A program made the translations under genes and the position numbers. From a plasmid: 64,000 nucleotides of DNA. Below are positions 15,331-44,685 of the stretch, piece after piece. Within the stretch, counting starts at the first letter, position 1, and each line of letters starts with the position of its first letter. The notes under the pieces were generated by a model. The model was not told where the DNA came from and did not search any database. It saw only the letters and a list, made by a program, of their open reading frames with translations. The DNA is taken from the sequence record NZ_LR134454.1, one strand, 5' to 3'.

Positions 15331-15353
15331 GTGACACAGATTACGAAATCCTC

Positions 15354-15365: not shown

Positions 15366-15432
15366 CACAAACAGGCGTAAAAACAGAAAAATCAAATCCA
15401 TAACCACAGAAACCCACGAACTCGGAGGGGTC

Positions 15433-16206
15433 ATGTACGCGGAGGAACGACAGCGCGCGATCAGTGAACTGGTCGGTGGGCGCGGCCGCGCGTCGGTCAT
15501 GGAGCTGGCCGAACGGTTCGACGTCACCCCGGAGACGGTGCGCCGCGACCTCGACGCCCTCGAGCGCCTCGGCGGCGTCCGCCGCGTGCACGGCGGCGTC
15601 GTCGCCGCGGGCGTCCTCGCCGGCGCCGAATCGGGCCTGGGGGAGCGCGAGGGCACCAACGCCGAGGCCAAGCGCGCGATCGGCGCCGCCGCCCGCCGCT
15701 TCCTGCCGCCGGCGGGCGGCTCCGTCCTCTTCGACGCGGGCACCTCCACCATCGCCGCCGCCCGCGAGGTCCCGGGGAACCTGCACATCACCGCGATCAC
15801 CAACTCCGTGCCCGTGGCGGCCACCCTGTCCACCCGCGAGGCCGTCGAGCTGCGGCTCCTCGGCGGCCGCGTCCGCGGGCTCACGCAGGCGGCGGTCGGC
15901 GCCGGCACCGTCGCCGAGATCGCGGGACTGCGGACCGATGTCGCCATCCTCGGCGCCAACGGGCTCAGTGCTGAGCGGGGCCTCTCCACGCCCGACGCCG
16001 ACGAGGCCGCGGTGAAGACCGCGATGGTCCGCGCCGCCGACTTCGTGGTCCTCGTCGCCGACTCGTCCAAGTTCGCGCGGGAGAGCCTCGTCGCCTTCGC
16101 CGCACTGGACGCGATCGACGTGCTGGTCACCGATGCCGCACCCACCGGCCCGCTCGCGGCGGCGCTCGCCGACCACGGCGTGAACGTCGAGGTCGCCACC
16201 CGATGA
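15433..16206 (+). CDS. fruR: DeoR/GlpR family transcriptional repressor (FruR/SugR-like)
   Basis: 257 aa with the N-terminal DeoR HTH (RQRAISELVGGRGRASVMELAERFDVTPETVRRDLDAL). RBS GGAGGGG. Confidence 0.85.
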   Translation: MYAEERQRAISELVGGRGRASVMELAERFDVTPETVRRDLDALERLGGVRRVHGGVVAAGVLAGAESGLGEREGTNAEAKRAIGAAARRFLPPAGGSVLFDAGTSTIAAAREVPGNLHITAITNSVPVAATLSTREAVELRLLGGRVRGLTQAAVGAGTVAEIAGLRTDVAILGANGLSAERGLSTPDADEAAVKTAMVRAADFVVLVADSSKFARESLVAFAALDAIDVLVTDAAPTGPLAAALADHGVNVEVATR

Positions 16207-17162
16207 TCGTGACCGTCACCGCCAACCCCAGCCTCGACCGGCTCGTCGTCCTCGGCGGGCCGCTGCAGCGAGGCGCCGTGCACCGCGCCGCGGGCGCCGC
16301 CGCCGATCCCGGGGGCAAGGGCGTCAACGTCTCCCGCGTGGTGCACGCCGCGGGGGAGGGCACCGTCGCCCTGCTCCCCGCCGATCAGGGGGATCCGCTG
16401 CTCGTCGGGCTCTCGCGCCTCGGCGTCCCGGCGATCCCGGTCGCCGTCGGCCACGAGGTGCGCAGCAACATCACCGTCACGGAACCCGACGGCACCACCA
16501 CCAAGCTCAACGCGCCCGGGGCGCCGCTCGCGCCGGAGGCGGTGCGGGCGCTCGAGGACGCGATCGTCACCTCCGCCGACGGTGCCGCCTGGCTCGCCCT
16601 GTGCGGCTCGCTGCCGCCCGGTCTTCCGGACGACTGGTACGCCCGTCTCGCCGAGCGCCTCAGCGGGCAGCCGGACGGCCCGCGCATCGCCGTCGACACC
16701 TCCGGCGCGGCGCTCGCGGCGTCCGCGGTGCGCGGCGTCGCGCTGCTCAAGCCCAACGCCGAGGAGCTGGCCGAGCTCGTGGGCCGCGGCGCCGAGGCCG
16801 GCGCCGAGTTCGAGAACCGCGCGGCGGCGGGCGATCTCGCGCCCGTCCGGGACGCGGCGGGCGAACTGCAGCGCCGCACCGGCGGTGCCGTGCTCGCGAC
16901 GCTCGGCGCGGCGGGCGCGCTCCTCGTCACCGCCGAGGGCGCCTGGGCCGCGACACCGCCCCCGATCACGGTGCGCAGCACCGTCGGCGCCGGCGACAGC
17001 TCCCTCGCCGGCTACCTCATCGCCCACGCGCGCGGCGCCACGCCGCCGCGGCGTCTTTCCCTCGCGGTCGCGTACGGCGCCGCGGCCGCAGCACTGCCGG
17101 GCACCCAGGCGCCCCGACCGGAGGAACTCGCCGTCGCCGACGTGCGGGTCATCGCTCTGTAG
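16203..17162 (+). CDS. fruK: 1-phosphofructokinase (PfkB family)
   Basis: Its start overlaps the fruR stop by 4 bp (ATGA). Ribokinase-like motifs are present (GGKGVNV, TVGAGDS). Confidence 0.8.
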   Translation: MIVTVTANPSLDRLVVLGGPLQRGAVHRAAGAAADPGGKGVNVSRVVHAAGEGTVALLPADQGDPLLVGLSRLGVPAIPVAVGHEVRSNITVTEPDGTTTKLNAPGAPLAPEAVRALEDAIVTSADGAAWLALCGSLPPGLPDDWYARLAERLSGQPDGPRIAVDTSGAALAASAVRGVALLKPNAEELAELVGRGAEAGAEFENRAAAGDLAPVRDAAGELQRRTGGAVLATLGAAGALLVTAEGAWAATPPPITVRSTVGAGDSSLAGYLIAHARGATPPRRLSLAVAYGAAAAALPGTQAPRPEELAVADVRVIAL

Positions 17163-17199
17163 CTCCCGACGATCCATCAGCAGAACCGGAGAACACCCC

Positions 17200-19266
17200 A
17201 TGACCGAATCGATCATCGCGCCCGAGCTGGTCGCGCTCGACGTCTCGGCCGGCACCGACAAGTCCGAGGTGATCGCCTACCTCGCCGGCCGCATCACCGA
17301 CGCCGGCCGTTCCTCCTCCGTCGACGGGCTCGTCGAGGCGGCGCTCGCCCGCGAGGCCCAGTCGGCCACCGGCCTCCCGGGCGGCATCGCGATCCCGCAC
17401 TGCCGCGCCGCGGCCGTCACCGCCGCGAGCCTCGGCTTCGCGCGACTCGACCCGAAGGTCGACTTCGGCGCCCCCGACGGCGGTGCGGACCTCGTCTTCC
17501 TCATCGCCGCACCGGAATCCGGCGGCTCGCAGCACATGAAGCTGCTCAGCGCGCTGGCCCGTGCGCTGGTGCGACCCGAGTTCACCGCCGCGCTCCGCGC
17601 CGCCGCCACGCCGGAGGAGGTGGTCGCCCTCGTCGAGGAGGTCATCGCCCCGAAGCCGGCGGAACCCAAGCCCGCCGCTCCCGCCGCCGCTCCCGCCGCC
17701 GCTGCGGCTGCCGCCCCGGCCCCGGCCGCGGAGCCGGCACCGTCGGGCAAGCCCTCGCTGGTGGCGATCACGGCGTGCCCCACGGGGATCGCGCACACCT
17801 ACATGGCCGCCGATGCCCTGAAGCTGGCCGCCGAGCGCGCGGGCGTCGAGCTGACCGTCGAGACGCAGGGCTCCTCCGGCTCCACGCCGCTGTCGGCGCA
17901 GACCATCGCCGACGCGGGCGCCGTCCTCTTCGCCACCGACGTGGGCGTCAAGGGCCGCGAGCGCTTCGCCGGCAAGCCCGTGATCACGTCGGGCGTCAAG
18001 CGCGGCATCAACGAGCCGGACGCGATGATCGCCGAGGCCGTCGCGGCGGCGAGCGACCCGCACGCCGCCACCGTCGACGGGGACGCCGCCGCGAGCGCCG
18101 AATCCGCACCCGCACAGCAGGGGCTGGGCGGTCAGCTCAAGCGCGCGCTGCTCACCGGCGTCAGCTACATGATCCCGTTCGTCGCGGCGGGCGGCCTGCT
18201 CATCGCGCTCGGTTTCCTTTTGGGCGGGTACGAGATCGGGAACAGCACGGTGTCCGAGGGCACGTCCGACGGTGCCTACTTCGCGCTGCACAACTCGCTC
18301 TGGAACCTGCCTCCGGGCGGGCTACTGCAGTACCTCGGCTCGGTCAGCTTCGCGACGGGCCAGGCGGCGATGAGCCTCATGGTCGCGGTGCTCGCGGGCT
18401 ACATCGCCTACGCCATCGCCGACCGGCCCGGGCTTGCACCGGGATTCGTCGCCGGCGTGCTCGCGGTGACGGTCAACGCCGGCTTCATCGGCGGCGTCGT
18501 CGGCGGCCTGCTCGCGGGCGTCGTCGCGCTGTGGATCGGCAAGCTGCAGCTGCCGCAGTGGGCCCGCGGCCTCATGCCGGTGGTGATCATCCCGCTGTTC
18601 GCCACGCTCATCACGGGTGGCCTGATGTACATGGTCCTCGCCGGGCCGCTGCGCTGGGTGAACGAGTCGATGACCGACGCCCTCAACGGGATGAGCGGCA
18701 GCAGCAAGATCGCGCTCGGCGTGGTCCTCGGCCTCATGATGTGCTTCGACCTGGGCGGGCCGGTGAACAAGGCCGCGTACGCCTTCGGCGTCGCCGGGAT
18801 CGGGCTCAGCACCGCCGGCGTGCCGCAGTGGGAGATGATGGCCGCCGTCATGGCCGCGGGCATGGTGCCGCCCCTGGCGCTCGCCCTCGCCTCCACCGTC
18901 CTGCGCCCGGGCCTGTTCACCGAACCCGAGCGGGAGAACGGCAAGGCGGCCTGGTTCCTCGGTGCGTCGTTCATCTCCGAGGGCGCCATCCCGTTCGCCG
19001 CGGCCGACCCGCTGCGGGTGATCCCGTCGATGATGCTCGGCGGCGCCGTCACGGGCGGCCTGTCCATGGCGCTCGGTGCTCAGTTGCGCGCCCCGCACGG
19101 CGGCGTCTTCGTGCTGTTCGCCATGAACGGCACCTGGTGGAAGTTCCTCATCGCCCTCGCCGCCGGCGTCGTGGTGAGCGCGGTGGCGGTCGTCGCGGCC
19201 AAGTCCGTCGGCCGCCAGGACGCTTCCGCCGCCGAATCCGCCCAGCCCGCGGCCGTCGCCGCGTAA
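17200..19266 (+). CDS. ptsF: PTS fructose-specific EIIABC component
   Basis: 688 aa. It has the IIA His region (GIAIPHCR), an Ala/Pro linker, the IIB Cys (ITACPTGIAHTYMA) and a multi-TM IIC. The start was taken at the internal ATG of a longer ORF. Confidence 0.8.
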   Translation: MTESIIAPELVALDVSAGTDKSEVIAYLAGRITDAGRSSSVDGLVEAALAREAQSATGLPGGIAIPHCRAAAVTAASLGFARLDPKVDFGAPDGGADLVFLIAAPESGGSQHMKLLSALARALVRPEFTAALRAAATPEEVVALVEEVIAPKPAEPKPAAPAAAPAAAAAAAPAPAAEPAPSGKPSLVAITACPTGIAHTYMAADALKLAAERAGVELTVETQGSSGSTPLSAQTIADAGAVLFATDVGVKGRERFAGKPVITSGVKRGINEPDAMIAEAVAAASDPHAATVDGDAAASAESAPAQQGLGGQLKRALLTGVSYMIPFVAAGGLLIALGFLLGGYEIGNSTVSEGTSDGAYFALHNSLWNLPPGGLLQYLGSVSFATGQAAMSLMVAVLAGYIAYAIADRPGLAPGFVAGVLAVTVNAGFIGGVVGGLLAGVVALWIGKLQLPQWARGLMPVVIIPLFATLITGGLMYMVLAGPLRWVNESMTDALNGMSGSSKIALGVVLGLMMCFDLGGPVNKAAYAFGVAGIGLSTAGVPQWEMMAAVMAAGMVPPLALALASTVLRPGLFTEPERENGKAAWFLGASFISEGAIPFAAADPLRVIPSMMLGGAVTGGLSMALGAQLRAPHGGVFVLFAMNGTWWKFLIALAAGVVVSAVAVVAAKSVGRQDASAAESAQPAAVAA

Positions 19267-32583: not shown

Positions 32584-35043
32584 CTATTCCTCGGGGCCCT
32601 CCCACGGCGCCTCGTCGGCGGAGGGCAGGTCACCGGGGAGCAGGTCGCGCCGGAAGCCGCGCCAGCTCGGTTGCCGCAGGTGGCCGCCCCGGCGCAGCGA
32701 CGAGTAGCGCACGTCGCCGATCACCTTGGGGAGCACCCACACGGCGTCACGGGCCTCGGGATCGTCGATCGGCGCCGTGAACGGGGAGCGGCGCATCCGC
32801 AGCGGCTCCAGCTCTTCGGCCAGCGCGGCCAGGTCGCGGTCGCTGAACCCGGAGCCCACCGACCCCAGGTAGACGAGCCCCGTCTCGGCGGGCAGGCCCA
32901 CGAGCACCGAGCCGATCCCGCCCCCGCGCGAGCCCTTGCCGGGCTTCCAGCCGCCGATCGCGACCTGCAGGTCGCGCCAGTTCTTGTGCTTGAGCCATGC
33001 GCGCACCCGCTGCCCCGGCAGGTACGGCGAGTCCCGGCGCTTCGCGATGATCCCCTCCCAGCCGAGTTCCGCGCTGAGCGCCGCGGCCTCCGCTCCGGTC
33101 GCCGCGTCGACGAGCGGCGGCACGCTCACCGCCGTGTCGTGTTCGAGCAGCGGCGCAAGGCCTTCCAGCACCTGGCGGCGCACCGTCCACGGGCGCTTCG
33201 TCAGGTCGACGCCGTTGAGCGACAGCACGTCGAAGAGGTACAGCTGCACCGCGCCGGACCGGGTCTCGCCGCCCGCCATCAGGTGGAACGACGGTACGCC
33301 GTTCGGGTCGAGCACCACCGCCTCGCCGTCGAGCACCACGTCCATCCCGTCGAGATCGGCGGCGAGGGACTCGAACTCGGGGAACTCGCCGGTCACCGTG
33401 CGGCCCGAGCGGGTGCGCAGGGAGACGGTGCCGCCGCGCACCGTCGCGATCATGCGGTAGCCGTCCCACTTGCCCTCGAAGGCCCAGTCCGCGGCGGAGA
33501 GCCCGTCGATCGCGGATTCGGTGGGCAGCATGGGATCCGGCGCGAGGCCGGCGGCGGGCTTGGCGGGCGCGGACTTGTCCTTGGTGAGGTGCGCGAGCCA
33601 GTTCTTGTCGCCGGTGCGGATCAGCGCGTACCGCTTGCCCTGCAGCCGATTCCCGTGCAGCGTCACGATCACCTCGTTCGAGCGCCACTTCTCCAGCTCG
33701 TAGGTGCCGTGGTCCCAGATGGTCACGTCGCCGCCGCCGTACTCGCCCCGGGGGATGCTGCCCTCGAAGGCCGCGTAGTCCATCGGGTGGTCCTCGGTGC
33801 GGACGGCGAGGTGGTTGATGTCGGGGTCGTCGGGGAGGTTCTTCGGCACGGCCCAGGAGGCGAGCACCCCGTCGTGCTCCAGGCGGAAGTCGTAGTGCAG
33901 GCGCCGCGCGTGGTGCTCCTGGATGACGAAGATCGGATCGCCCTGCGACGGTGCGCCGCCGAAGGGCTCGGGCGTCTTCCGCGCGTCGCGCTTGGCGCGG
34001 TACTCGCCGAGGTCGACGGGCTCGGGCGGCGGCGCCGACGGTGCCTCGGCGCCGTCCGGCCGGGCGTCGGCACCGTAGAGCCCGGCGAGGAGGTCGCCGT
34101 CGGCCAGGGCGCGCGCGAGGACCTCGCCGAACTCGAGCTGGCGCAGGCCGGGGCGGGCGAGCTCGTCCCAGGTGCGCGGCGCGGCGACCCACGGATGGTC
34201 CCGTCCGCGCAGCGAGTACGGCGCGACGGTGGTCTTGGACGCGCTGTTCTGCGACCAGTCGACGAAGATGCGGCCGCCCCGCTGGACCTTCGCCATCGAC
34301 GCGGTGACCAGCTCGGGCGATTCGACCTCCAGCTGCGAGGCGATGGCGTGCGCGACCGTGCGCGCGCCGTTCGCCGAGATGCCGCCGGGCAGGGGCGCGT
34401 AGACGTGCAGCCCCTTGGAGCCGCTGGTCACGGGGTAGCCCTCCATGTCCATCGCGGCGAGCAGCTCGCGGATGCGCAGGGCGAGCGCGGCGCAGTCGTC
34501 GAGGGTGACGTCGGGGCCGGGATCGAGGTCGAGCACGAGGCGGTTCGGCGGTCCGGGGACCTCCGGGCGGTCGGGGTCGGCACCGTCGGGCACGAACGCC
34601 CACTGCGGGACGTGCAGCTCCAGCGCGGCCTGCTGGCCCAGCCACACCATGCCGGCGGCGTTCTCGATGACCGGGTACTGGGACTCGCCGTCGGAGTGGA
34701 ACTGGCTGCCGCGGCGGATCCACGCCGGCGCGTGGCTCGGCAGCCGCTTCTCGAAGAAGGCGGTCTTGTCCACGCCGTTGGGCCAGCGCTTGCGGGTGAG
34801 GGGCCGGTCGCGCAGGTGGGGGAGGGCGAACGGGGCGATGGCCTGGAAGTAGTCGATGACCTCGGCCTTCGTGGTACCCGTGGCGGGGTAGAGCACCTTG
34901 TCGAGGTTGGTCAGCTGCACACCGACGCCGTCGACCTCGCGGTTCTCCCGGATCTGCGCCACGGGCCCATTATCGGGCCCCGCGCCCGCAGCGGGGAGGA
35001 ACGTCCCGTTCGCGCCCTCGCTAAATGACTCCTCACCAGTCAC
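32584..35043 (-). CDS. ligD: Multidomain NHEJ DNA ligase LigD (polymerase/primase – phosphoesterase – ATP-dependent ligase)
   Basis: LigD_Pol domain (VQLTNLDKVLYP…KRWPNGV). PE domain (FVIQEHHARRLHYDFRLE). Ligase domain with adenylation and OB folds. It is divergent from ku. The GTG start is at 35043 or 35052. Confidence 0.8.
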   Translation of the reverse strand: MTGEESFSEGANGTFLPAAGAGPDNGPVAQIRENREVDGVGVQLTNLDKVLYPATGTTKAEVIDYFQAIAPFALPHLRDRPLTRKRWPNGVDKTAFFEKRLPSHAPAWIRRGSQFHSDGESQYPVIENAAGMVWLGQQAALELHVPQWAFVPDGADPDRPEVPGPPNRLVLDLDPGPDVTLDDCAALALRIRELLAAMDMEGYPVTSGSKGLHVYAPLPGGISANGARTVAHAIASQLEVESPELVTASMAKVQRGGRIFVDWSQNSASKTTVAPYSLRGRDHPWVAAPRTWDELARPGLRQLEFGEVLARALADGDLLAGLYGADARPDGAEAPSAPPPEPVDLGEYRAKRDARKTPEPFGGAPSQGDPIFVIQEHHARRLHYDFRLEHDGVLASWAVPKNLPDDPDINHLAVRTEDHPMDYAAFEGSIPRGEYGGGDVTIWDHGTYELEKWRSNEVIVTLHGNRLQGKRYALIRTGDKNWLAHLTKDKSAPAKPAAGLAPDPMLPTESAIDGLSAADWAFEGKWDGYRMIATVRGGTVSLRTRSGRTVTGEFPEFESLAADLDGMDVVLDGEAVVLDPNGVPSFHLMAGGETRSGAVQLYLFDVLSLNGVDLTKRPWTVRRQVLEGLAPLLEHDTAVSVPPLVDAATGAEAAALSAELGWEGIIAKRRDSPYLPGQRVRAWLKHKNWRDLQVAIGGWKPGKGSRGGGIGSVLVGLPAETGLVYLGSVGSGFSDRDLAALAEELEPLRMRRSPFTAPIDDPEARDAVWVLPKVIGDVRYSSLRRGGHLRQPSWRGFRRDLLPGDLPSADEAPWEGPEE

Positions 35044-35052
35044 AATGGTCAC

Positions 35053-35865
35053 ATGCGCGCGATATGGACGGGTGAGCTGTCGTTCGGGCTCGTGAACGTG
35101 CCCGTGAAGGTGTACTCCGCGATCGAGAGCCACGACGCGAAGTCGCACCAGGTGGACTCGAAGGACGGGGTCCGCATCCGGTACAAGCGCGTGCGCGAGG
35201 GCACCGACGACGAGGTGGAGTTCGCGAACATCGCGAACGCCTACGAGGCCGACGGCGGCGAGACGGTGGTCGTCTCGAAGGAGGACATCAAGTCGATGCC
35301 GGTGGAGAAGCACCGGGAGATCGCGGTGACGGAGTTCGTGCCGCGCGAGGACGTCGACCCGATCATGTTCGACAAGCCCTACTTCCTGGAGCCCTCGTCG
35401 AAGTCGCCCAAGGCGTACGTGCTGCTGCGGCAGGCGCTGCAGGAGACCGACCGGCTCGCGATCTGCACGTTCACGCTGCGCAACCGCACGCGGCTGTGCG
35501 CGCTGCGCGTGGTCGGCAACGTCATGGTGCTGCAGACCCTGCTCTGGCCCGACGAGGTGCGCACGCCGGAGTTCCCGGCGCTCACCGAGGACGTGAAGAT
35601 CCGCCCGCAGGAGCTCGCGATGGCCGCCTCACTCATCGACTCGATGGCGACCGACTTCGACCCCGAGCAGTACGAGGACGACTACCAGGTGCAGCTGCGC
35701 CAGCTGATCGAGGCGAAGGCCACCGGCGGCACCGCGTTCCCCGAGGCCCCCGAGGAGGAGGCCGAGGACGACGAGGTCGCCGACCTGCTCGCCGCGCTCA
35801 AGGCGTCGGTGAAGAACCGGGAGGCGCAGCCCGAGCGGCCCGCGCGCAAGCGCACCGCGAGCTGA
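35053..35865 (+). CDS. ku: Ku protein (non-homologous end joining)
   Basis: 270 aa. Begins MRAIWTGELSFGLVNVPVKVYSA, the canonical bacterial Ku N-terminus. Confidence 0.9.
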   Translation: MRAIWTGELSFGLVNVPVKVYSAIESHDAKSHQVDSKDGVRIRYKRVREGTDDEVEFANIANAYEADGGETVVVSKEDIKSMPVEKHREIAVTEFVPREDVDPIMFDKPYFLEPSSKSPKAYVLLRQALQETDRLAICTFTLRNRTRLCALRVVGNVMVLQTLLWPDEVRTPEFPALTEDVKIRPQELAMAASLIDSMATDFDPEQYEDDYQVQLRQLIEAKATGGTAFPEAPEEEAEDDEVADLLAALKASVKNREAQPERPARKRTAS

Positions 35866-36432
35866 TCACCGCCCGCTCGCGACGTCCCGCAGGTCCGCGA
35901 AGGCGCGCCGGGTCACGTCCTCCAGGTCGACGGTGCCCTCCGCCGCGATCCACTCCTCGTACGCCGCGGTGAAGGCGGCGACGCCCGCGCCCGCCGCGAC
36001 CCGGGCCGTCCGCGGCGCGGCGCCGCGGACGGCGAGCGCGGCCGCGAGGGCGCGCGCCAGGGAGTCCATCTTGTGCAGTTCGCGTTCGCGCAGCGCCGGC
36101 GTCGCGTCGATGACGCGCTGGCGCTCGATCGGCAGGGCGCCGCGGCCGGCGATCATCCGCGCCATCGTGCCGAACGCGGCCGCGACGACGTCGATCGGCG
36201 CGGCCTCCGGCTGCGCCTCGGCGGCCTGTGCGGCGAGCATCTCCTCGAGGAGGCCCTGGCCCCAGAACAGGACCTCCTTCTTGTCGGCGTAGTGCCGGAA
36301 GAAGGTCCGCTCGGTGAGCCCCGCGCGCTCGGCGATCTGCGCGACGGTGGTGGCCTCGTAGCCCTGCTCGGCGAACAGCGCGAACGCCGCCGCCTCGAGC
36401 CGCTCCTGTGCGTTCGGCTGCCACCGTGCCAT
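35866..36432 (-). CDS. TetR family transcriptional regulator
   Basis: 188 aa with the HTH TTVAQIAERAGLTERTFFRHY. It is the last gene of the NmrA-like–TetR operon. Confidence 0.8.
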   Translation of the reverse strand: MARWQPNAQERLEAAAFALFAEQGYEATTVAQIAERAGLTERTFFRHYADKKEVLFWGQGLLEEMLAAQAAEAQPEAAPIDVVAAAFGTMARMIAGRGALPIERQRVIDATPALRERELHKMDSLARALAAALAVRGAAPRTARVAAGAGVAAFTAAYEEWIAAEGTVDLEDVTRRAFADLRDVASGR

Positions 36433-36441
36433 GCGTCGAGC

Positions 36442-37326
36442 CTACGAAACGGCCGCGGGATCCCAGCGCGCGATGTCGTCGACGAGGCCCGCGCCGTCGG
36501 GCGCCCACCCCAGCGCGGCGCGGGTCAGCTCCGTCGACGCCGTGGTGTCCAGGGCGAGCAGCGGTGCGAGGAAACCGAACCGGGCCTCGGCGTCGCCGGG
36601 CTCGACCACCTCGGTCGGGACGCCCATGAGCCGCCCGACGGCCGCGGCGATGTCGGCCACCGCGACGGCCTCGCCGGCGGCGTGGAAGACGGATCCCGCG
36701 GTTCCGCGCTCGGCGGCCAGGCGGAACAGCCGCGCGGCGTCGCGGCGGTGCACCGCGGGCCAGCGCTGCGCCCCGTCGCCGACGTACCCGGAACGCCCGG
36801 CGTCGCCCGCGATGGCGGCCAGGCGGCCGACGAAACCGGCGGGCACGTCGTCGTGCACCGACGGTGCCAGCCGGACGACGGACGAGCGGACGTCCCGCTC
36901 CGCGAGCGCGAGCGCGGCGGCGAACCCGGCGGTCCGCGGGGACGGGGGCATCGGGTCGGTCTCCAGCGCGTCGCGGCCGCTGGTCAGCCCGAGGAGGCCG
37001 GAGGCGATGACGAGGGGCCGCCCGGATCCGGCGAGCGCGTCGCCCATCGCGTCGATGGCCGCGACCTCGACCTGCGCCGACTCGGCGAACTGCGAGAAGT
37101 CGTGGTTGAACGCGAGATGGATGACCCCGTCCGTGTCCGCGGCGGCCGCGCGGAGCACCGCGGTCTCCTCGATCGTGCCGCGGACAGGCTCGGCGCCCAG
37201 CGCGCGGACGGCGTCGGCACCGCGATCCGACCGGACGAGGCCGGTGACCTCGTGGCCGGCGCCGAGCAACTCAGTGACCACTGCGGAGCCGACGAAGCCG
37301 GACGCGCCCGTGACGAAGAATCGCAT
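36442..37326 (-). CDS. NAD-dependent epimerase/dehydratase-family (NmrA/SDR-like) oxidoreductase
   Basis: 294 aa, beginning MRFFVTGASGFVGSAVV. RBS AGGAGG. Confidence 0.8.
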   Translation of the reverse strand: MRFFVTGASGFVGSAVVTELLGAGHEVTGLVRSDRGADAVRALGAEPVRGTIEETAVLRAAAADTDGVIHLAFNHDFSQFAESAQVEVAAIDAMGDALAGSGRPLVIASGLLGLTSGRDALETDPMPPSPRTAGFAAALALAERDVRSSVVRLAPSVHDDVPAGFVGRLAAIAGDAGRSGYVGDGAQRWPAVHRRDAARLFRLAAERGTAGSVFHAAGEAVAVADIAAAVGRLMGVPTEVVEPGDAEARFGFLAPLLALDTTASTELTRAALGWAPDGAGLVDDIARWDPAAVS

Positions 37327-37347
37327 GGTGAGAACCTCCTGAACGAT

Positions 37348-37404
37348 GTGATGTCAGTTGCTGACATCACTGACCATACGCCTGATGTCAGCAACTGTCA
37401 TCAC
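37348..37404. promoter_or_regulatory. Two tandem palindromic operators: GTGATGTCAG-TTG-CTGACATCAC and TGATGTCAG-CAA-CTGTCATCAC (candidate TetR binding sites)
   Basis: They sit 22–78 bp upstream of the NmrA-like–TetR operon. The first has 10-bp perfect arms; the second has one mismatch. Confidence 0.5.
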
Positions 37405-37417
37405 TGCCGTGTGCGGA

Positions 37418-39178
37418 CTACAGCGTGCGCTTGAGGCCCACGTGTTCGGAGCGGTACCCGAGCCGGGTGTAGAAGGCCCGCGCCCGGTCGCGGGAGACGT
37501 CGGTGGTGAGTTGGGAGAGCACGGCGCCGTGGGTCCGGCCGTGGTGGTGCGCCCACTCGATCATCGCGGTGCCCAGGCCCTGCGACCGGTGGCCGCGGGC
37601 CACCCGGACGCCCTCGATCTGCAGCCGTGTCGACCCGCTGCGGGACAGCCCCGGGATGACGGTGAGGTGCATCGTCCCCACGATCCGGCCGGCGTCGTCC
37701 CGGATCACGGCCAGGTACTGCGAGCGGTCACGGGTCACCAGCTCGAAGGCGCTGTCGTACTCCGCGGCGTCGCCCACCTCGCGCGTCGCGCCGAGTTCGT
37801 CGTCGGCGAGCAGCGCGACGATCGCGGGCACGTCGTCGCGGCGCGCGCGCTCCACCCGGTAGGGGGTGCCGCCGATGCCGCGGAGCACTCCGCCGACCGC
37901 GGCGCGGGCCTGCAACTCGCGGACCACGCCGTCGAGCCAGGCCCCGACGTTCGCGCGCGCCTCGAGGGTGTCGGGGTAGCGGCACCGCAGGTGCAGCCCC
38001 GCCTCGTCGAGGATGAACCAGAGCATCACCCCGTCCGTGCGGATGGTCGCGCCGACGTACTGCGCGTCGAGCCGGGTCGCGTCCACGCGGACGGGCAGGC
38101 GGCGCAGGTCCAGCCACGAGATCGCGAACATGCCGGGGGCCTCCGGCATCCCGCCCCACTGCTCGAGGACGTCGGCGAGCGGCCACGAGCCGAGCCGCAC
38201 CGCCTCCTTCACGGCCTCGGCGGCCGCGGCCGGTTCCGCGGACGGGGAGTCCAGCACCGAGTTGGTGATGAACCAGCCCACCGAGTCGTGCCACGTCTCG
38301 TCGTAGCGGCTGTGCACGGGGAACACGGCGCGCAGCGGCGCGCCGGCGAGGTCCAGGGTCACGCGGGTCAGGGCCGCCACCGTCGCCGACAGGGTGGACA
38401 CGCCCGCCTCCCGGGCGGCCGCGGCGAACGCGGCGACCTCGTCGGTGCCGAAGACGTCGCGGACCTCCACGCGCTCGCGGTGCGCCTCGGGGGTGCCCAG
38501 CGGCAGGGGGAACAGAGGCATGACTCTGCCACTGGCGGTGATGATCTCGGCCCAGCGGCGCCGCACGTCCTCGGGTGCCGCGGGGCGGTCCGCCAGGGCC
38601 CGGGTGTGGTCGACGAACGGCGGGACGACCTCCGTCGACGGTGCCCGCCCCGCGCGGACGTCCTCGAGCGCGGCGAGCAGGTCGCGCGCGATCACGAGCA
38701 TCGACCACATGTCGGTGTGCGAGTGGTCGGCGGCCACGATCACCGTCGGGCCCGCGGCCGTCTCCAGGACGCAGAGCCGGTGCGCGGGACGGCGATAGGG
38801 GGAGCAGGCGTCGTCGAGCACGTCGCGAAGGGCGTCGTTGACGGCCTGACCCGGGCCGATCGCGTGCTCCACCCAGTTCCCCGGCCGCACCGAGATCTCG
38901 TGCAGGGTGGGCCCAGCGGGTCCGGGGAGGAACGCGGTCCGCAGCGTGCCGTGCCGGGCGATCACCGCGAGCCAGGCGGCGGCGAGCTGCTCGCGCGGCA
39001 CCGGGTCGGGCAGCCGGAAGGACAGCGCCATCCACGACCCCGGCCGGTCCCCGCCGCCCACGTGCCGCGCCTGATCGAAGGAGACCGGCAGCGCCGCGGC
39101 GGGCTCCGACGCCGCGACGTCGTAGCCGTACAGCCGGCCGAACGGCAGGCGCAGGTGGGCGACGTTGGTCAGGCGCAT
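37418..39178 (-). CDS. Condensation-domain (NRPS C-domain/PapA-like acyltransferase) fused to a C-terminal GNAT N-acetyltransferase
   Basis: 587 aa. Residues 1–430 carry C-domain motifs (LPVSFDQAR; QLAAAWLAVIARHGTLRTAF; the variant active site AADHSHTDMWS in place of HHxxxDG). Residues 440–587 form a GNAT domain (RVARGHRSQGLGTAMIEWAHHHGRTHG…RLGY). Confidence 0.65.
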   Translation of the reverse strand: MRLTNVAHLRLPFGRLYGYDVAASEPAAALPVSFDQARHVGGGDRPGSWMALSFRLPDPVPREQLAAAWLAVIARHGTLRTAFLPGPAGPTLHEISVRPGNWVEHAIGPGQAVNDALRDVLDDACSPYRRPAHRLCVLETAAGPTVIVAADHSHTDMWSMLVIARDLLAALEDVRAGRAPSTEVVPPFVDHTRALADRPAAPEDVRRRWAEIITASGRVMPLFPLPLGTPEAHRERVEVRDVFGTDEVAAFAAAAREAGVSTLSATVAALTRVTLDLAGAPLRAVFPVHSRYDETWHDSVGWFITNSVLDSPSAEPAAAAEAVKEAVRLGSWPLADVLEQWGGMPEAPGMFAISWLDLRRLPVRVDATRLDAQYVGATIRTDGVMLWFILDEAGLHLRCRYPDTLEARANVGAWLDGVVRELQARAAVGGVLRGIGGTPYRVERARRDDVPAIVALLADDELGATREVGDAAEYDSAFELVTRDRSQYLAVIRDDAGRIVGTMHLTVIPGLSRSGSTRLQIEGVRVARGHRSQGLGTAMIEWAHHHGRTHGAVLSQLTTDVSRDRARAFYTRLGYRSEHVGLKRTL

Positions 39179-39230
39179 GGGCGGTACCCTAGCCCTCCAA
39201 CGAACCCTCCGCGCGGCGAGAGAAGGCCGG

Positions 39231-40004
39231 ATGACCAGCTTCGACGTCCCCGGGGCGCGGCTCGCCACCGAGTACAGCGACGAGCACGGACGCCCCGTCG
39301 TGCAGCTCCACGGCCTCACCTCCAGCCGCGCCCGGGACCGCGTGCTGGACCTGGACCTCGGACGCGGCCTCAGCGGGACGCGGCTCCTGCGCTACGACGC
39401 GCGCGGGCACGGCTCCTCGACCGGCTGCGCGGTCCCCGACGACTATCGCTGGCCGAACCTCGCCGACGACCTGCTGCGGCTCCTCGACCACTGGTTCCCC
39501 GGGGAGCGGGTGCACGGCGTCGGGCCGTCGATGGGCACCGGCACGCTGCTGCACGCCGCCGTGCGCGAGCCGGAACGGTTCAGCGGGCTGACCCTCATGG
39601 TGCCGCCGACCGCATGGGCGACGCGTGTCGCGAAGGCCGCCGAATACCGCTCCGCCGCAACGATGATCGAGGAGCGCGGGCTGGAGGCGTTCCTCGCGGC
39701 GGGGGAGGGTGCCGCGCCGCCGCCGGCCACCGTCGAACACCCTCCGACGCGGCCCGACGTCCCCGCATCGCTCCTGCCCTCGCTCTTCCGCGGCGCCGCC
39801 GCGAGCGATCTCCCCGCGCTCGGGGAGATCGCCCGCATCGACGTGCCCGTCACCGTTCTGGCCTGGATCGACGATCCGGCGCACCCGGTCTCGACGGCCG
39901 AGGAGCTCAGCAGGGCGCTCCCGCGGGCGTCGCTGTCGGTCGCTCGGACTCCGCAGGACGTGCAGGAGTGGCCGTCGGTCCTGTGCCGGGACGTCGCGGG
40001 GTGA
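39231..40004 (+). CDS. Alpha/beta-fold hydrolase
   Basis: 257 aa. HGLTSS is an oxyanion-hole motif; the nucleophile pentapeptide is GPSMG. It is divergent from the condensation–GNAT gene. Confidence 0.7.
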   Translation: MTSFDVPGARLATEYSDEHGRPVVQLHGLTSSRARDRVLDLDLGRGLSGTRLLRYDARGHGSSTGCAVPDDYRWPNLADDLLRLLDHWFPGERVHGVGPSMGTGTLLHAAVREPERFSGLTLMVPPTAWATRVAKAAEYRSAATMIEERGLEAFLAAGEGAAPPPATVEHPPTRPDVPASLLPSLFRGAAASDLPALGEIARIDVPVTVLAWIDDPAHPVSTAEELSRALPRASLSVARTPQDVQEWPSVLCRDVAG

Positions 40005-40863
40005 GCCGCGAGACCGCCACGCCGACCAGACACAGGACGCCGCCCAGCAGGCCCCACGCGGTGGGCGTCTCGGCCAGGAACGCCCAGCTCAGCAGGATCG
40101 ACAGGCCCGGCACCGCGTAGGACGACGAGGCGGTGACCCCGGCGGGCGTGTGCGCCAGCGCGTAGGCCCACAGCAGGAAGGCGAGCGCGGTCGGCACGAG
40201 TCCCAGGTAGATCACCCCGACGGTGCTCGACATCGGCGCCGTCGCCAACTCGGCGAAGAGCCGGGGCGCCCAGGGCAGCAGGACGATCGCGCCGACGCCC
40301 GCACCCAGCGCGGTGGCGGTCAGCGGGTCGACGGTGCGCAGCACCAGCTTCTGCGCCACCACGCTGATGCCGTAGAGCAGCGCCGCGGCGACCGCCAGCG
40401 CCACGCCGGCACCGTCGCGCCGGCCGTCGCCGGTGAAGGCGATGATCGCGGCCCCGGCGAAGCTGATCGCGATGCCCACCACCAGCAGCGGCGGGAAGCC
40501 CTCCTGCAGGAAGGCGCCGGCCAGCACCGCGACGATGATCGGTGCGATGTTCACCAGGAGCGCCGTGGTCCCGGCGTCGAGGTGCTGCTCCGCGGCGTTG
40601 ACCAGCACGGTGTACAGCGCGAACCACAGCGCGCCGTAGCCGATGGTCAGCGCGAGGGTGCGGCCGCGGGGCAGCCGGACGCCGCCGTTGTACAGGGCGT
40701 TCATTCCCCAGATCATGCCGAGGACGGCGGCGCCCACCAAGAGGCGTCCCTCCGCCATGGCGATGGGGGAGACGTGCGGGCCGAGCCCGCGGATCACCAC
40801 GAAGGCCGAGGCCCACGCGAACATCACGGCCACGAGTGCCAGGGCGGGGAGTCGATTCGTCAT
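39907..40863 (-). CDS. DMT superfamily (EamA-like) transporter
   Basis: About 318 aa with 10 TM helices and two EamA repeats. Confidence 0.7.
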   Translation of the reverse strand: MTNRLPALALVAVMFAWASAFVVIRGLGPHVSPIAMAEGRLLVGAAVLGMIWGMNALYNGGVRLPRGRTLALTIGYGALWFALYTVLVNAAEQHLDAGTTALLVNIAPIIVAVLAGAFLQEGFPPLLVVGIAISFAGAAIIAFTGDGRRDGAGVALAVAAALLYGISVVAQKLVLRTVDPLTATALGAGVGAIVLLPWAPRLFAELATAPMSSTVGVIYLGLVPTALAFLLWAYALAHTPAGVTASSSYAVPGLSILLSWAFLAETPTAWGLLGGVLCLVGVAVSRLTPRRPGTGPTATPARPAESERPTATPAGAPC

Positions 40864-40947
40864 GAGCTCAACTCTGCGATCGGAGCGGAGTAAGCACAAG
40901 CGCATATTTCTGCACTATCATTCAGTAGAACTGAATGGAGGCTTCTC

Positions 40948-41853
40948 ATGCTCGACGCGCACCGGCTCATGATCTTCCGCTCCGTCGCCGCCACGGGTTC
41001 CGTGGCCGCGGCGGCGGCCAGCCTCGGCTACACCCCGTCGGCCGTCTCGCAGCACGTCGCCGCCCTGCAGCGTGAGACGGGGCTCAAGCTCCTGGAACGG
41101 GTCGGACGGGGCGTCGAGCTCACCCCCGCCGGGCGGGTGCTGGCCACCGAGGCCGACGGGGTGCTCAGCAGCCTCAACGACCTCGGCGCCACCGTCGACG
41201 ACCTGCGGGCCGGCAAGGCCAACCGGATCACCATGAACGTCTTCGCCACCGCCGGCACGCACTGGATGCCGTCGGTCGTGCAGACGCTCAGCGCCGAGTT
41301 CCCCGATACCCGCCTGCGCCTGCGGATCGAGGACGAGGTCACCGAGATCGCCGCCCGCCGGCCGGATCTCGCCGTCGCGGTGCGCCAGGAGCACGGGCAG
41401 ACGACCGCGGTGCAGGGCTTCTCCCACGAGGACCTCGTGGTGGAGTCCTACGTCGCCGTCGTGCCCGCGGATCACGCGTTCGCGGGCCGGGAGCTGGTGG
41501 ACATGGCCGAGCTCGAACACGAGCGCTGGATCGACAACGACGTGCGGCGCGGCGCGTGCCGCCAGGCCGTGCTCGATGCTTGCGCCGCAGCGGGGTTCAC
41601 GCCCCGCTTCGTGGTCGAGACCACCGACTACCCGTCGGCGCTGCGGTTCGTCGCCCGGGGCGTCGGCGTCACCGTCCTGCCGCGCCTCGGCGCCACCGAG
41701 CTGCCGCCCGGCACCGTCGCCGTCGACGTGTGCAACCCCGCGCCGCGGCGCACCATCGTCGCCTACGTCAAGGACTCCGAGTGCCGGAACCCCGTGGTGC
41801 GCAGGGCCATGCACCTGCTCCGCGAGGCCGCCGCGAGTTCTAATCGTCCGTGA
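40948..41853 (+). CDS. LysR family transcriptional regulator
   Basis: 301 aa with the HTH AAAASLGYTPSAVSQHVAALQRETG. Confidence 0.8.
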   Translation: MLDAHRLMIFRSVAATGSVAAAAASLGYTPSAVSQHVAALQRETGLKLLERVGRGVELTPAGRVLATEADGVLSSLNDLGATVDDLRAGKANRITMNVFATAGTHWMPSVVQTLSAEFPDTRLRLRIEDEVTEIAARRPDLAVAVRQEHGQTTAVQGFSHEDLVVESYVAVVPADHAFAGRELVDMAELEHERWIDNDVRRGACRQAVLDACAAAGFTPRFVVETTDYPSALRFVARGVGVTVLPRLGATELPPGTVAVDVCNPAPRRTIVAYVKDSECRNPVVRRAMHLLREAAASSNRP

Positions 41854-43198
41854 GGCGGGTGGCGACGAGGACCGTCGCCACCGCCGAGGCGAGTGGCACC
41901 AGTAGAGCCATGGCGAATCCCGTGTGCCCCCACGCGAGAGTTTGCGCGAAGATCCCACCGGCGCACGCGATCGCGAGGGCGGTGCCCACCGCTTCGGAGA
42001 GCTTGAGGGCGCTGGAGTTGGCGCCCTGCTGGTCGTCCGCGCTGAGGCCGAGCAGAAGGATCGACAGGGTCGGCAGCGCCAGGCCCATGCCGAACCCGCC
42101 GATCCCCCACGCCACGAAGATCACCGGCCACGGGGCATCGATCGCGAACGCCGACGCGACGGCGGTGAGGGCGAGCGCCAGCAGACCGGACCCGATCAGT
42201 GGGAGGCGCCGGCGGACCGGCCCCGTCGCGGGGATCCGCGCCTGCACCTGCGAGGCGAGCGCCCACAGCAGGGCTGCGCCCGTCATCACCGAGCCCGCGG
42301 CGAACGGCGAGAGCCGGTCGACGTGCACCAGGTACAGCGGAACGTAGATCTCCGCGGCGAAGAAGGCGCCCGCCAGGAGGAGGTTCGCGAGCATGAGCCG
42401 CGGGATACCCGCCCGGCCGGTCAGAGACCCCGCGGGCAACATTCGCCGCGTCGCCACCAGTGCGGCGGCCAGACAGGCCACCGCGACCGCGAGGAGCACG
42501 GCGCCGCCCTTCGGTGCGGCGAACTGCGCGACGGCCATGGTCGTGCCCGCCGCGAGGGCCGCGAGCAACAGCCCGCGATCCGGCGGATCCTCATGGCGGT
42601 AGGCCGATTCGTCGAACCCGGCGGTGGCGCGCAGGGTCGCGGCGAGGGCCAGCAGCGACGGCCCCGCCAGCCCCAGGAAGACCCAGCGCCACCCCACCGT
42701 GTCGACGGCGAGCCCCGCGAGGGCGGGACCGATGAGCGACGGCACGACCCACGCCGTCGAGTACGCGGCGAAGACCCGCGGGCGCCCGTCCTCCGGTACC
42801 AGCCGCCCGACCATGGCGTAGAGCACGACGCTGATCAGGCCGCTCCCCAGGCCCTGCACGCCGCGACCCACCGCCAGCACCCCCATGCCGGGTGCCGCAC
42901 CGACGATCACCAGGCCGACCGCGAACAGCAGTGCGCCCGTGATCAGTGGCGGCTTCACGCCGGCCCGGTCCACCCAGGGACCGACCCACGCGATCGCGAC
43001 GATCATCGCCGCGAAGGCGGCGCCGAACGCCACCGAGTACTCGGCGGTCGCGCCGAACTCGGCCGCGGCGCGCGGCAGCACGGTGCCGACGGCGAGGGTC
43101 TCGAAGGCGGAGAACGCGATCAGCGCGACAGACCCGATCAGGAACCAGCGCAGCCGGGCCCGATCGGGAGCCGTCCGGGCGTCCGCGTCGGTAGTCAT
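41840..43198 (-). CDS. MFS transporter
   Basis: About 452 aa with 12–14 TM helices. The start is ATG 43198 or GTG 43207. Confidence 0.75.
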   Translation of the reverse strand: MTTDADARTAPDRARLRWFLIGSVALIAFSAFETLAVGTVLPRAAAEFGATAEYSVAFGAAFAAMIVAIAWVGPWVDRAGVKPPLITGALLFAVGLVIVGAAPGMGVLAVGRGVQGLGSGLISVVLYAMVGRLVPEDGRPRVFAAYSTAWVVPSLIGPALAGLAVDTVGWRWVFLGLAGPSLLALAATLRATAGFDESAYRHEDPPDRGLLLAALAAGTTMAVAQFAAPKGGAVLLAVAVACLAAALVATRRMLPAGSLTGRAGIPRLMLANLLLAGAFFAAEIYVPLYLVHVDRLSPFAAGSVMTGAALLWALASQVQARIPATGPVRRRLPLIGSGLLALALTAVASAFAIDAPWPVIFVAWGIGGFGMGLALPTLSILLLGLSADDQQGANSSALKLSEAVGTALAIACAGGIFAQTLAWGHTGFAMALLVPLASAVATVLVATRLTDD

Positions 43199-43284
43199 CC
43201 TCGGCACGCTAATACGTCGACCATGGTTGAGGTCAACCGAGAAAACCGGTTGATCGCACAGTCCCCGAGCGGCATCGTGGAAAG

Positions 43285-44685
43285 GTGCATACCGACCCCA
43301 GCCCCCGCAGCCGCGTGCCCCGCATGCTGCGGCCGCTGCTGCGCCGGGACTACCGCCTCCTCTTCGTGACGTTGCTCTGCGCGCTGACCACCGACGGCAT
43401 GTGGCTGGTCTCCGTCGTGTGGCAGGTGATCGACATGGGCGGCTCCGCCACCAGCGTCTCGCTGGTCTCGGGCGCCGCCTCCATCGGCCTGCTCGTCTCC
43501 ACCCTCGCGGGCGGGGTGCTCGCGGACCGGGTCTCGCAGCAGCGCATCCTGTTCGTGCTGGAGCTGCTCAAGGTCGCGGTCATCGGCGGCATCGGCGCGC
43601 TGATCGTCGCGGACGCCATCACGGTGCCGATCCTCATGGCCGGTTCCCTCGCGCTGGGGCTGGTGTCGGGCTTCTACTTCCCCGCCTACTCCGCGCTGGT
43701 GCCGCGGCTCGTGCCGGCCGCCGAGCTGCTCGCGGTCAACGGCTACGAGTCGGCCGTCCGTCCCGCGGCCGCGATGGCCGTCGGACCGGCGGTCGCGGCG
43801 TGGATCATCGCCGTCGCCGACCCCGGTGCGGCGCTGCTGGTAGCGGGCGGGATCTGCCTGTTCGCCGCGCTCTGGGTGGTCCGCATCCGGGTCCCGGAGG
43901 CCGACGATGCCGACGAGGCCGAGTCCGGCTCGCCGCTGCGCGACCTCTGGGAGGGCATCGGCTACGTGCGGCGGACCCCGTGGCTGCTGGCGACCCTGCT
44001 CTTCGCGAGCCTGATGGTGCTGGTCACCGTGGGCCCGATCGACGTCCTGCTGCCCTTCGCGATCAAGGACCAGGCGCACGGCGCCGCGAGTGAACACTCG
44101 ATGATCCTGGCGGCCTACGGTTTCGGCGGCGTGGCCGGCGCGCTGTTCATGGCCGCCCGGCGGATGCCCCGGCGCTACCTGACCGTGATGATGGGGATCT
44201 GGGGCGTCGCGTCGCTGCCGATGCTGGTGTTCGGCCTGGCCGAGAGCGTCTGGCCCATGGTGGTCGCCGGCTTCGTGCTCGGCGTGCTGTTCGAGGCGCC
44301 GGTGGTGATCTGGGGGACCCTGCTACAGCGCCGGGTACCGCGACGGTTGCTGGGCCGGGTCTCCAGCCTGGACTTCTTCGTCTCACTCGTGTTCATGCCC
44401 CTGTCCTTCGCGGTGGCGGGCCCGGTGAGCCAGGCGATCGGCCTCACCGCGACCTTCGCCCTCGCCGCTCTGATCCCGATCCCGCTCGCGGTGGTCGCCA
44501 TCCTCGCCGCGCGGATGCCGCAGGACGAGCTGGAGCACCCGCTGCGCGAGGACGACGAGGACGCGGGGGACGACGATGGGGACGGCACCGTCGAGCCCGG
44601 GTCCGATGCCCGGGCGGACGCCGCCCGCGACGCGCCGGTTTCGCCGACCGTGAACGCTCCGCCCGGGGAACGCACCGTCGGATAG
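43285..44685 (+). CDS. MFS transporter (EntS/YbdA-like exporter family)
   Basis: 466 aa and 12 TM helices, with an acidic C-terminal tail. Confidence 0.75.

Follow-up and report, generated by a model that had tools for sequence, protein, structure and literature searches.

What does a protein do that joins a condensation-type acyltransferase and an acetyltransferase in one chain, and which of its neighbours work with it? The question is raised by a 64,000-nucleotide stretch of sequence record NZ_LR134454.1 (the window; GC content ~72%), in which a minus-strand gene encodes a fusion of a PapA2-like condensation-superfamily domain with a GNAT N-acetyltransferase domain, next to a divergently transcribed gene for an alpha/beta-hydrolase-fold protein. 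An original prediction, made from the sequence of the window alone, had placed both genes in one module with a DMT-family exporter and a LysR-type regulator. Here, we find that the conserved unit is the pair of fusion and hydrolase genes. We are highly confident of its architecture, that is, a bifunctional transferase, a dedicated hydrolase-fold partner and a shared control region. That the locus acts as a self-contained two-gene acyl-transfer unit, combining acylation of a sugar-like acceptor, N-acetylation and a hydrolase step, has in our estimate an even chance of being right. The fusion gene comprises the following features.

37418..39178, minus strand: gene for the PapA2-like acyltransferase-GNAT fusion, 586 aa (open reading frame, invariant N-terminus, full-length orthologues, AlphaFold2 model)
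37895..39178, minus strand: N-terminal condensation-superfamily domain of PapA2 type, aa 1-428 (Pfam, family profile, Foldseek)
38702..38728, minus strand: active-site motif DHSHTDMWS, aa 151-159, with predicted catalytic His152 and Asp156 (translation, alignment)
37421..37873, minus strand: GNAT N-acetyltransferase domain, aa 436-586 (Acetyltransf_1 56.1 bits, Acetyltransf_7 40.5 bits)
37571..37588, minus strand: acetyl-CoA-binding loop RSQGLG, R531-G536 (R531, G534 and G536 invariant)

The open reading frame (ORF) runs from an ATG at 39178 to a stop codon at 37418-37420 and holds 587 codons including the stop; the 587-aa protein of the original prediction is one residue too long. A longer minus-strand ORF (37418-39319, opening with GTG at 39319) encloses the gene. 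We regard the ATG as the start and the GTG as unused, because the N-terminus MRLTNV.HLRLPFGRL is invariant in 13 aligned orthologues from three orders (Tsukamurella, Gordonia, Rhodococcus, Nocardia, Agrococcus, Arthrobacter, Microbacterium, Janibacter, Nocardioides and Aeromicrobium). An assembly or frameshift artefact joining two genes, a risk flagged from the start, is ruled out: the frame is unbroken, each of the 120 best database clusters spans the whole protein (581-613 aa, 68-99% identity, both domains present), 80 genome loci hold the same uninterrupted gene, and orthologues of the same length are present in hundreds of genomes. The Tsukamurella tyrosinosolvens counterpart is ~99% identical as a protein, and orthologues were found in Mycobacteriales, Micrococcales and Propionibacteriales, where the source names of the clusters are just “GNAT family N-acetyltransferase” or “peptide synthetase”. 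A scan with one genome per species yielded 438 loci encoding a relative. The fusion is a genuine two-domain protein family of Actinomycetota.

The condensation-type N-terminus proposed for this protein was borne out. Pfam Condensation (PF00668) matches residues ~50-325 of the 586-aa protein with 31.9 bits against a cut-off of 30.6, a score that is marginal when taken alone (Pfam results were counted at E<=0.01). The match is secured because stand-alone relatives of the clade, which score between 27 and 70 bits, reach 70 bits, because the family profile matches PapA2 of Mycobacterium tuberculosis (PDB 6AEF) over its full length (residues 3-436, E=1.5e-52), and because the fold agrees. PapA2 is Rv3820c, the trehalose-2-sulfate 2'-O-acyltransferase. 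The same profile finds C domains of nonribosomal peptide synthetases (NRPS) at E 5e-34 at best, many lying between 1e-34 and 1e-8, and PapA5 at E=1e-6; with the fusion as a single sequence, PapA2 is matched at E=4.6e-4. Neither PapA_C nor the WS/DGAT wax-ester/triacylglycerol synthase models of Pfam matched the fusion at the threshold, and no NCBIfam family was found for the C-like domain. The AlphaFold2 model of the whole fusion (predicted local distance difference test score, pLDDT, 92.8; predicted template modelling score, pTM, 0.84) retrieved 6aef at rank 1 in Foldseek (E=2.9e-30, template modelling score 0.81), ahead of all NRPS C domains. The 50 best matches are all C/E/X-type domains at probability 1.00, with a V-shaped fold of two lobes resembling chloramphenicol acetyltransferase (CAT). 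Profile and model together point to a specifically PapA2-like domain and not to a fragment of an NRPS module. An exhaustive search with residues 1-435 placed the fusion proteins in only two 50%-identity clusters, and returned stand-alone relatives of ~435-475 aa at ~50-57% identity, a broad set of ~450-aa stand-alone proteins at ~30% and NRPS megasynthases at 28-32%.

The active-site motif was confirmed in translation, with the second His and the Asp retained. It departs from strict HHxxxDG by an Asp for the first His and a Met for the Gly. D151, H152, H154, D156, W158 and S159 are invariant in the 13 orthologues; among 58 family members D156 never varies, and D151, H152 and S159 are each kept in 90% or more. 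The Asp-for-His exchange noted in the original prediction is no peculiarity of this protein: D-H-x-x-x-D-x-x-S is common to the stand-alone relatives and DH is nearly invariant across the whole clade of stand-alone PapA-like proteins, therefore the Asp is a clade character and no lesion. PapA2, which has Ala at this position (A-H-x-x-x-D-P as against D-H-x-H-x-D-M-W-S here), shares ~19% identity with the fusion. Both have a similar N-terminal strand, PapA2 likewise being a stand-alone condensation-superfamily acyltransferase of ~450 aa without adenylation (A) or peptidyl carrier protein (PCP) domains. In the profile alignment, the predicted catalytic H152 and D156 fall on H166 and D170 of PapA2, whose His166 lies in the tunnel between the two lobes; PapA2 is an acyl-CoA-dependent trehalose-2-sulfate O-acyltransferase that uses palmitoyl-CoA (PMC6996325). 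Two of the zinc ligands of PapA2 (C19, H21, H124 and H135; PMC6996325) are not conserved, since the fusion has G18 and D20 in the places of C19 and H21. This zinc site is a feature of PapA2 alone, not one by which PapA proteins are defined.

The same comparison bears on an alternative in which the fusion is a trans-acting, NRPS- or carrier-protein-dependent condensation enzyme whose donor is tethered to a PCP or acyl carrier protein encoded elsewhere. VibH, SgcC5 and in-line NRPS C domains share with it the V-shaped two-lobe fold, the Condensation family and the second His plus Asp, and the Pfam match, profile values and megasynthase identities given above mark C domains as clear relatives. 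Moreover, PapA1, PapA3 and PapA5 accept acyl groups bound to polyketide synthases (PKS) in vivo, and the window itself holds an ORF with PP-binding and thioesterase domains (26-2413, plus strand). We nevertheless consider this alternative quite unlikely. PapA2 is by far the closest relative, NRPS condensation enzymes being more distant both by profile and by fold, and C domains have His and Gly where the fusion has Asp and Met. The absence of an adjacent adenylation or carrier domain, noted in the original prediction, holds: no such partner lies within 30 kb of the fusion in the window, the PP-binding/thioesterase ORF is the only one of its kind there, lies at a distance of ~35 kb and is not conserved beside the pair, and the Pfam-annotated neighbourhoods of 11 loci contain no A, PCP, MbtH, PKS or FadD gene beside the pair. 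The distant ORF is probably the tail of a PKS/NRPS gene running off the window start and is unlinked to the fusion in other genomes.

The C-terminus is a complete GNAT domain, as had been proposed. Acetyltransf_1 (PF00583) matches with 56.1 bits (cut-off 20.7), and RSQGLG, which fits the GNAT R/Q-x-x-G-x-G/A acetyl-CoA motif, is kept together with Tyr570; R531-x-x-G534-x-G536 and Tyr570 are invariant in the 13 orthologues. Because the active-site and acetyl-CoA motifs are invariant, both domains look catalytically competent. PDB 1Z4E matches the fused GNAT at E=5.7e-21, AAC(3)-I at ~1e-7 and GNA1 at 2e-3. The nearest characterised relatives with solved structures, AAC(3)-I and GNA1, act on aminocyclitol or amino-sugar amines. 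GNATs of 1Z4E type, AAC(3)-I and PhnO have the fold, acetyl-CoA loop and C-terminal Tyr in common with this domain, which differs in being fused to a PapA-like domain. Stand-alone homologues at 47-54% identity occur in Alphaproteobacteria and Nonomuraea; their neighbourhoods are mutually unrelated and hold no informative gene context, and they were dropped as a clue to the substrate.

Next to the fusion gene lie the hydrolase gene and, beyond it, the transporter and regulator genes; this gene order, given in the original prediction, was confirmed by Pfam.

39231..40004, plus strand: partner alpha/beta-hydrolase-fold gene, 257 aa (Abhydrolase_1, synteny, AlphaFold2 model)
39522..39536, plus strand: nucleophile elbow GPSMG with Ser100 (G98, S100, M101 and G102 invariant, 82/82)
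39870..39887, plus strand: acid-loop motif DDPAHP after strand beta7, with Asp215, His218 and Pro219 (each 82/82; strand from the AlphaFold2 model)
39907-40905, minus strand: EamA/DMT transporter (Pfam)
40948-41853, plus strand: LysR regulator (Pfam)

The window neighbours were searched by tblastn in the 80 genome loci, 8 of which are from Tsukamurella and 72 are not. The hydrolase gene divergently adjoins the fusion gene in 78 of the 80, with 65-75% identity outside Tsukamurella. Only the 8 loci from Tsukamurella have matches to the DMT, LysR, both MFS and Ku genes beside the pair, and just 2 of these 8 also have the SDR and TetR genes. Clustering of all locus ORFs revealed no other cross-genus neighbour except YchF. 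A sister clade without GNAT (Phycicoccus, Patulibacter, Microbacterium and Micropruina), whose C-like domain is ~57% identical to that of the fusion, carries the same divergent hydrolase in all five loci examined. The hydrolase is kept in fusion and GNAT-less loci, therefore the PapA2-like gene and the hydrolase gene form the conserved core; the GNAT domain is a later addition in one clade.

These distributions also decide on the proposal that fusion, hydrolase, DMT and LysR genes cooperate in the synthesis, trimming, export and regulation of a single acylated small molecule. The hydrolase part of this module stands; DMT and LysR do not belong to it, and tblastn together with ORF clustering rules out all of DMT, LysR, MFS, SDR, TetR and Ku as members. 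The four genes are contiguous in the window and in all 8 Tsukamurella loci, and transporters of other families are often found near the pair elsewhere. However, DMT and LysR are absent from the 72 non-Tsukamurella loci, with the exception of two unrelated LysR matches at 25-33% identity and other positions. LysR and DMT look like a divergent regulator/target pair of their own, and the DMT gene is convergent with the hydrolase gene, overlapping it by 98 nt (39907-40004), so the two are not co-transcribed. A four-gene module is very unlikely in our view; the DMT and LysR genes beside the pair are a local coincidence in Tsukamurella. The overlapping DMT tail is of low complexity and rich in Pro, Thr and Ala.

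The partner protein is assigned by Abhydrolase_1 (51 bits, cut-off 25.8) and by an AlphaFold2 model of moderate quality (pLDDT 73, pTM 0.79) with an esterase/PcaD/KAI2-like fold. Among solved structures it is closest to 3OM8, to PcaD-type lactonases, to esterases and to proteins of MenH and KAI2 type. It shares with PcaD/RsbQ/KAI2-type enzymes (3OM8, 2XUA, 4UHC) the fold, the HG oxyanion motif (H27-G28, 82 of 82 orthologues), the GxSxG elbow and the Asp after beta7.

Fusion and hydrolase genes face away from each other across a short shared region.

39179..39230: 52-nt divergent intergenic region between fusion and hydrolase genes (sequence)
39185..39191, minus strand: heptamer TAGGGTA, seven nt upstream of the fusion ATG, -10-like (conserved position)

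Intergenic lengths are 20-90 nt in other loci. A GAGAAGG Shine-Dalgarno sequence precedes the hydrolase gene (39220-39226), and the fusion gene is without one. All 87 loci compared have a TANNNT hexamer, most often TAGGAT or TAGGGT, whose end lies 6-8 nt upstream of the start codon of the C-like gene, too close to leave room for a Shine-Dalgarno sequence. In 84 of the 87 the hexamer is followed by an A, yielding TAGGRTA. In actinobacterial promoters, a -10 hexamer this close to the ATG is a signature of leaderless mRNA. The -10-like element hence implies, by prediction, that the fusion transcript is leaderless. TANNNT is readable on both strands, the window heptamer reading TACCCT on the hydrolase strand, and may serve as a face-to-face bidirectional -10 for both genes. 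Rfam gave no match over 35000-43500. For the long intergenic type described below, the idea of a riboswitch or other structured RNA was discarded (RNAalifold consensus -1.04 kcal/mol, essentially no covariation).

How might the two proteins act together? We propose that the fusion gene would be expressed as a leaderless mRNA from the TAGGRTA -10, while the short intergenic region also drives the hydrolase gene in the opposite direction. The fusion product would be a cytoplasmic bifunctional transferase, in which a stand-alone member of the condensation/CAT superfamily with an intact His152/Asp156 dyad would most likely use acyl-CoA to acylate a hydroxyl (or amine) on a polar acceptor resembling a sugar. 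The GNAT joined to it would N-acetylate an amino group, at the expense of acetyl-CoA, on the same molecule or a precursor. The hydrolase would remove or relay the acyl group at its ester bond, with turnover, editing or transacylation as the outcome. Relatives of PapA2/TlsA type and AAC(3)-I/GNA1 suggest acyl-CoA as the donor, a sugar-like compound or amino sugar as the acceptor, and the direction of the hydrolase step. The mechanism with a sugar-like acceptor is accordingly put forward as tentative and less likely than not.

Relatives of the N-terminal domain point the same way. Rhodococcus TlsA, the trehalose-lipid synthase needed for succinoyl-trehalose lipids, is a reported PapA homologue (PMC8396431). 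Distant relatives of the C-like domain (24-31% identity) on a metagenomic contig, at a second T. tyrosinosolvens locus and on a Sinorhizobium plasmid adjoin glycosyltransferase, acyltransferase or sulfotransferase genes, and the wider PapA-like clade is repeatedly tied to sugar modification. An N-acyl amino acid, one of two products suggested by the original prediction, is without support, and the closest characterised relatives (PapA2, and by the literature PapA1, PapA3 and TlsA) acylate trehalose-type sugars; the other, an acylated cell-envelope metabolite, is possible.

Two of these distant loci can be described further. The T. tyrosinosolvens one (NCTC13231 ‘plasmid 9’, 6848-8308) encodes a second C-like paralogue at 24% identity, which clusters with a glycosyltransferase, two acyltransferases and an acyl-CoA carboxylase subunit and looks like a glycolipid locus. 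On the Sinorhizobium terangae plasmid (4782-12290), a sulfotransferase, a C-like protein (27% identity), a GMC oxidoreductase, an aminotransferase, a HAD hydrolase and a glycosyltransferase follow one another, a gene row that recalls the sulfotransferase-plus-PapA2 logic of sulfolipid synthesis.

Several observations weigh against the proposed acyl-transfer unit. The sugar-like acceptor would follow from homology to PapA2/TlsA-type enzymes at only ~20% identity, and the pair shows no consistent linkage to genes for glycosyltransferases, sugar pathways, FadD, PKS or lipid export. The matches of the GNAT domain to named acetyltransferase families, GNA1 among them, lie far below the NCBIfam cut-offs (PhnO 31.3 against 142 bits, AAC(3)-I 24.8 against 200, streptothricin acetyltransferase 18.8 against 420). 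A literature search for the fusion or the gene pair found no publication. An enzyme and its antagonist produced from one control region would cancel each other out in a futile cycle, short of regulation or of transacylation by the hydrolase. In the Rhodococcus opacus group (L019, L022 and L087), the fusion is intact with its TAGGAT promoter and the adjacent hydrolase gene is lost, replaced in L019 and L087 by a gene for a small membrane protein (MLIIGMILFGVLVGA...); fusion and hydrolase are therefore not obligatorily coupled. Finally, the canonical His site of the hydrolase after strand beta8 (VARTPQDVQEWP, aa 237-248; the sequence after beta8 reads ARTPQDVQEWP) has no conserved His among 82 orthologues, and such a protein may not be a conventional esterase.

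This last point deserves closer inspection. Position 239 is His in 26 of the 82 hydrolases, position 242 is variable and position 243 is Asp or Glu in 80. The hydrolase that accompanies the GNAT-less gene of Microbacterium sp. P04 does have the His (ARSPHEV), therefore the ancestral hydrolase was probably canonical. Compared with PcaD/RsbQ/KAI2-type enzymes, the post-beta8 catalytic His is missing in all 82 and an invariant His stands three residues after the Asp, in D-D-P-x-H-P. The partner may thus carry a rewired triad or be non-hydrolytic; invariant His218 together with Asp215/Asp243 suggests a site that is rewired and still active. On the other side stands the possibility of protein-directed acylation, in which both proteins form a complex, the C-like or GNAT domain modifies a protein, possibly at Ser100, and the hydrolase serves as acyl acceptor or regulatory subunit. 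An invariant Ser100 without the canonical His in 82 of 82 hydrolases would suit such a role, and ~70% identity of both partners across orders is compatible with an extensive protein-protein interface. Since the putative rewired site argues for an enzyme and the fusion persists without an adjacent hydrolase in the R. opacus group, we regard protein acylation as highly improbable. Returning to the acyl-transfer unit, a bolder version of it, which we judge unlikely, would have the pair both make and turn over an undescribed metabolite widespread in Actinomycetota, an N-acetylated, O-acylated amino-sugar or pseudodisaccharide, with a hydrolase triad rewired as Ser100-His218-Asp; trehalose-, trehalosamine- or glucosamine-inositol-type scaffolds, for example, would be candidates. 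The nucleophile-acid-histidine order is regarded as a constant of the alpha/beta-hydrolase fold. If true, a His that has left the beta8 loop for the acid loop would break this order.

The inheritance of the pair was examined via its conserved neighbour and a neighbour-joining tree of the C-like domain. YchF lies at most 8 kb from the pair in 18 loci of Gordonia, Rhodococcus, Arthrobacter, Curtobacterium and Microbacterium, and is 70-71% identical between two orders, about the same as the fusion between Tsukamurella and Arthrobacter. Purely vertical inheritance under strong constraint, first favoured because of this synteny, was weakened by the tree, in which Mycobacterium copies nest within Micrococcales at 84-85% identity, in conflict with taxonomy, and Nocardioides, Aeromicrobium and Agrococcus stand beside Nocardia and Rhodococcus at ~82-83%. 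Mycobacterium (L054, L069, L074, L080) and Arthrobacter/Microbacterium/Curtobacterium loci (L040-L076) also have a long intergenic type in common, in which the motif TTCAGGCTAACCGGGG stands shortly ahead of the -10. The shared intergenic type and the nesting suggest transfer of the fusion between orders, and the overall picture appears to owe something to strong constraint as well as to horizontal transfer among actinomycetes.

Transfer is also what a xenobiotic- or antibiotic-modifying cassette would show, one that spreads among soil actinomycetes and combines CAT-like O-acylation, AAC-like (aminoglycoside acetyltransferase) N-acetylation and ester hydrolysis to inactivate an amino-sugar or ester-containing compound from outside. 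The two-gene unit is self-contained, its distribution is patchy, its contexts vary and transporters are frequent near it; all three domains weakly resemble resistance enzymes. Mycobacterium copies within Micrococcales and Nocardioides copies at 83% to Rhodococcus exceed the 70-71% of YchF across orders; the best named GNAT matches are AAC(3)-I, PhnO and streptothricin acetyltransferase, and the hydrolase weakly matches the macrolide esterases EstX and EstT. Yet all resistance-family scores are far under their curated cut-offs, as in the case of AAC(3)-I above, and ychF synteny in five genera suggests long chromosomal residence. Among 72,556 plasmids of PLSDB there is no orthologue of the fusion, all matches being below 60% identity or confined to the GNAT, and no insertion sequence, integron or other mobile-element gene flanks the pair in the loci examined. 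The PLSDB result rules out a plasmid-borne mobile cassette; the cassette in general is unlikely, with enough in its favour to keep it in mind beside the acyl-transfer unit.

Each of the domains belongs to a well-known superfamily, and teamwork of PapA proteins with hydrolases has precedents. PapA1 and PapA2 are teamed with Chp1, PapA3 with Chp2 and PapA5 with TesA, a hydrolase-fold partner transferring or removing acyl groups in each case. Chp1 is the partner of PapA1 and PapA2 in mycobacterial lipid synthesis (PMC3318749). Chp1 and Chp2 are membrane-associated and cutinase-like and TesA is a type II thioesterase, whereas the partner found here is a soluble PcaD/esterase/KAI2-like hydrolase without the canonical His, encoded divergently and outside a lipid gene cluster. 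The fusion itself differs from PapA2 in its C-terminal GNAT, in its location outside a pks/fadD/mmpL/sulfotransferase lipid cluster, which is absent from the window and from most annotated loci, and in its occurrence in genera without mycolic acids (Arthrobacter, Microbacterium and Nocardioides). In M. marinum, the pair is found near dnaB with the hydrolase gene adjacent; this is the sole locus with such lipid-cluster genes (mmpS/mmpL) near it.

The domain architecture, the gene pair across orders and the histidine-less hydrolase appear to be undescribed. To our knowledge, PapA-type acyltransferases are known almost only from mycobacterial virulence-lipid clusters. Here, a PapA-type clade is fused to a GNAT, tied to a dedicated hydrolase and about as conserved as the universal ATPase YchF, in at least three orders, or four classes/orders if the Thermoleophilia of the GNAT-less clade are counted. 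Such conservation points to an acylated metabolite, or a detoxification reaction, so far overlooked in common soil and clinical actinomycetes such as M. marinum, Nocardia, Gordonia and Tsukamurella. A hydrolase with an invariant candidate replacement His could be an instructive exception in a well-studied enzyme fold. The unit for cloning or knock-out is the gene pair and not the four-gene neighbourhood.

Some further candidates were set aside. Neither the fusion nor the hydrolase protein matched a PADLOC model of known anti-phage systems, and a role in anti-phage defence was discarded. In the GNAT-less locus of Microbacterium sp. P04 (L083, 4418-5936), a gene for a 230-aa GNAT follows 4 nt after the hydrolase gene, apparently in an operon; it was discarded as a lead, since it is no homologue of the fused GNAT (E=0.065) and the other four GNAT-less loci lack it. 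An EgtB-like gene (DinB_2 plus FGE-sulfatase) within a few kb of the pair in only three loci, two of Nocardioides and one of Phycicoccus (L077, L081, L088), had suggested a link to ergothioneine and was treated as coincidence.

On the other side of the fusion gene, two genes stand between it and Ku.

35866-36432: TetR regulator
36442-37326: SDR/NAD-epimerase

As they recur in only 2 of the 8 other Tsukamurella loci, they look like a recent insertion; in most Tsukamurella loci Ku is the direct neighbour of the fusion. A sigma-70-like site (ATGACA-17-TATGGT, 37401-37373, minus strand) precedes the SDR gene. Beyond TetR and SDR, Ku and LigD, a multidomain ATP-dependent DNA ligase, form a divergent non-homologous end-joining pair (32584-35865). 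Farther out, the window encodes components of a phosphotransferase system (13648-19266), namely Enzyme I (13648-16176, minus strand) and an EIIA/EIIB protein (16582-19266, plus strand), and an EccA-like AAA ATPase of type VII secretion (58972-61551, plus strand).

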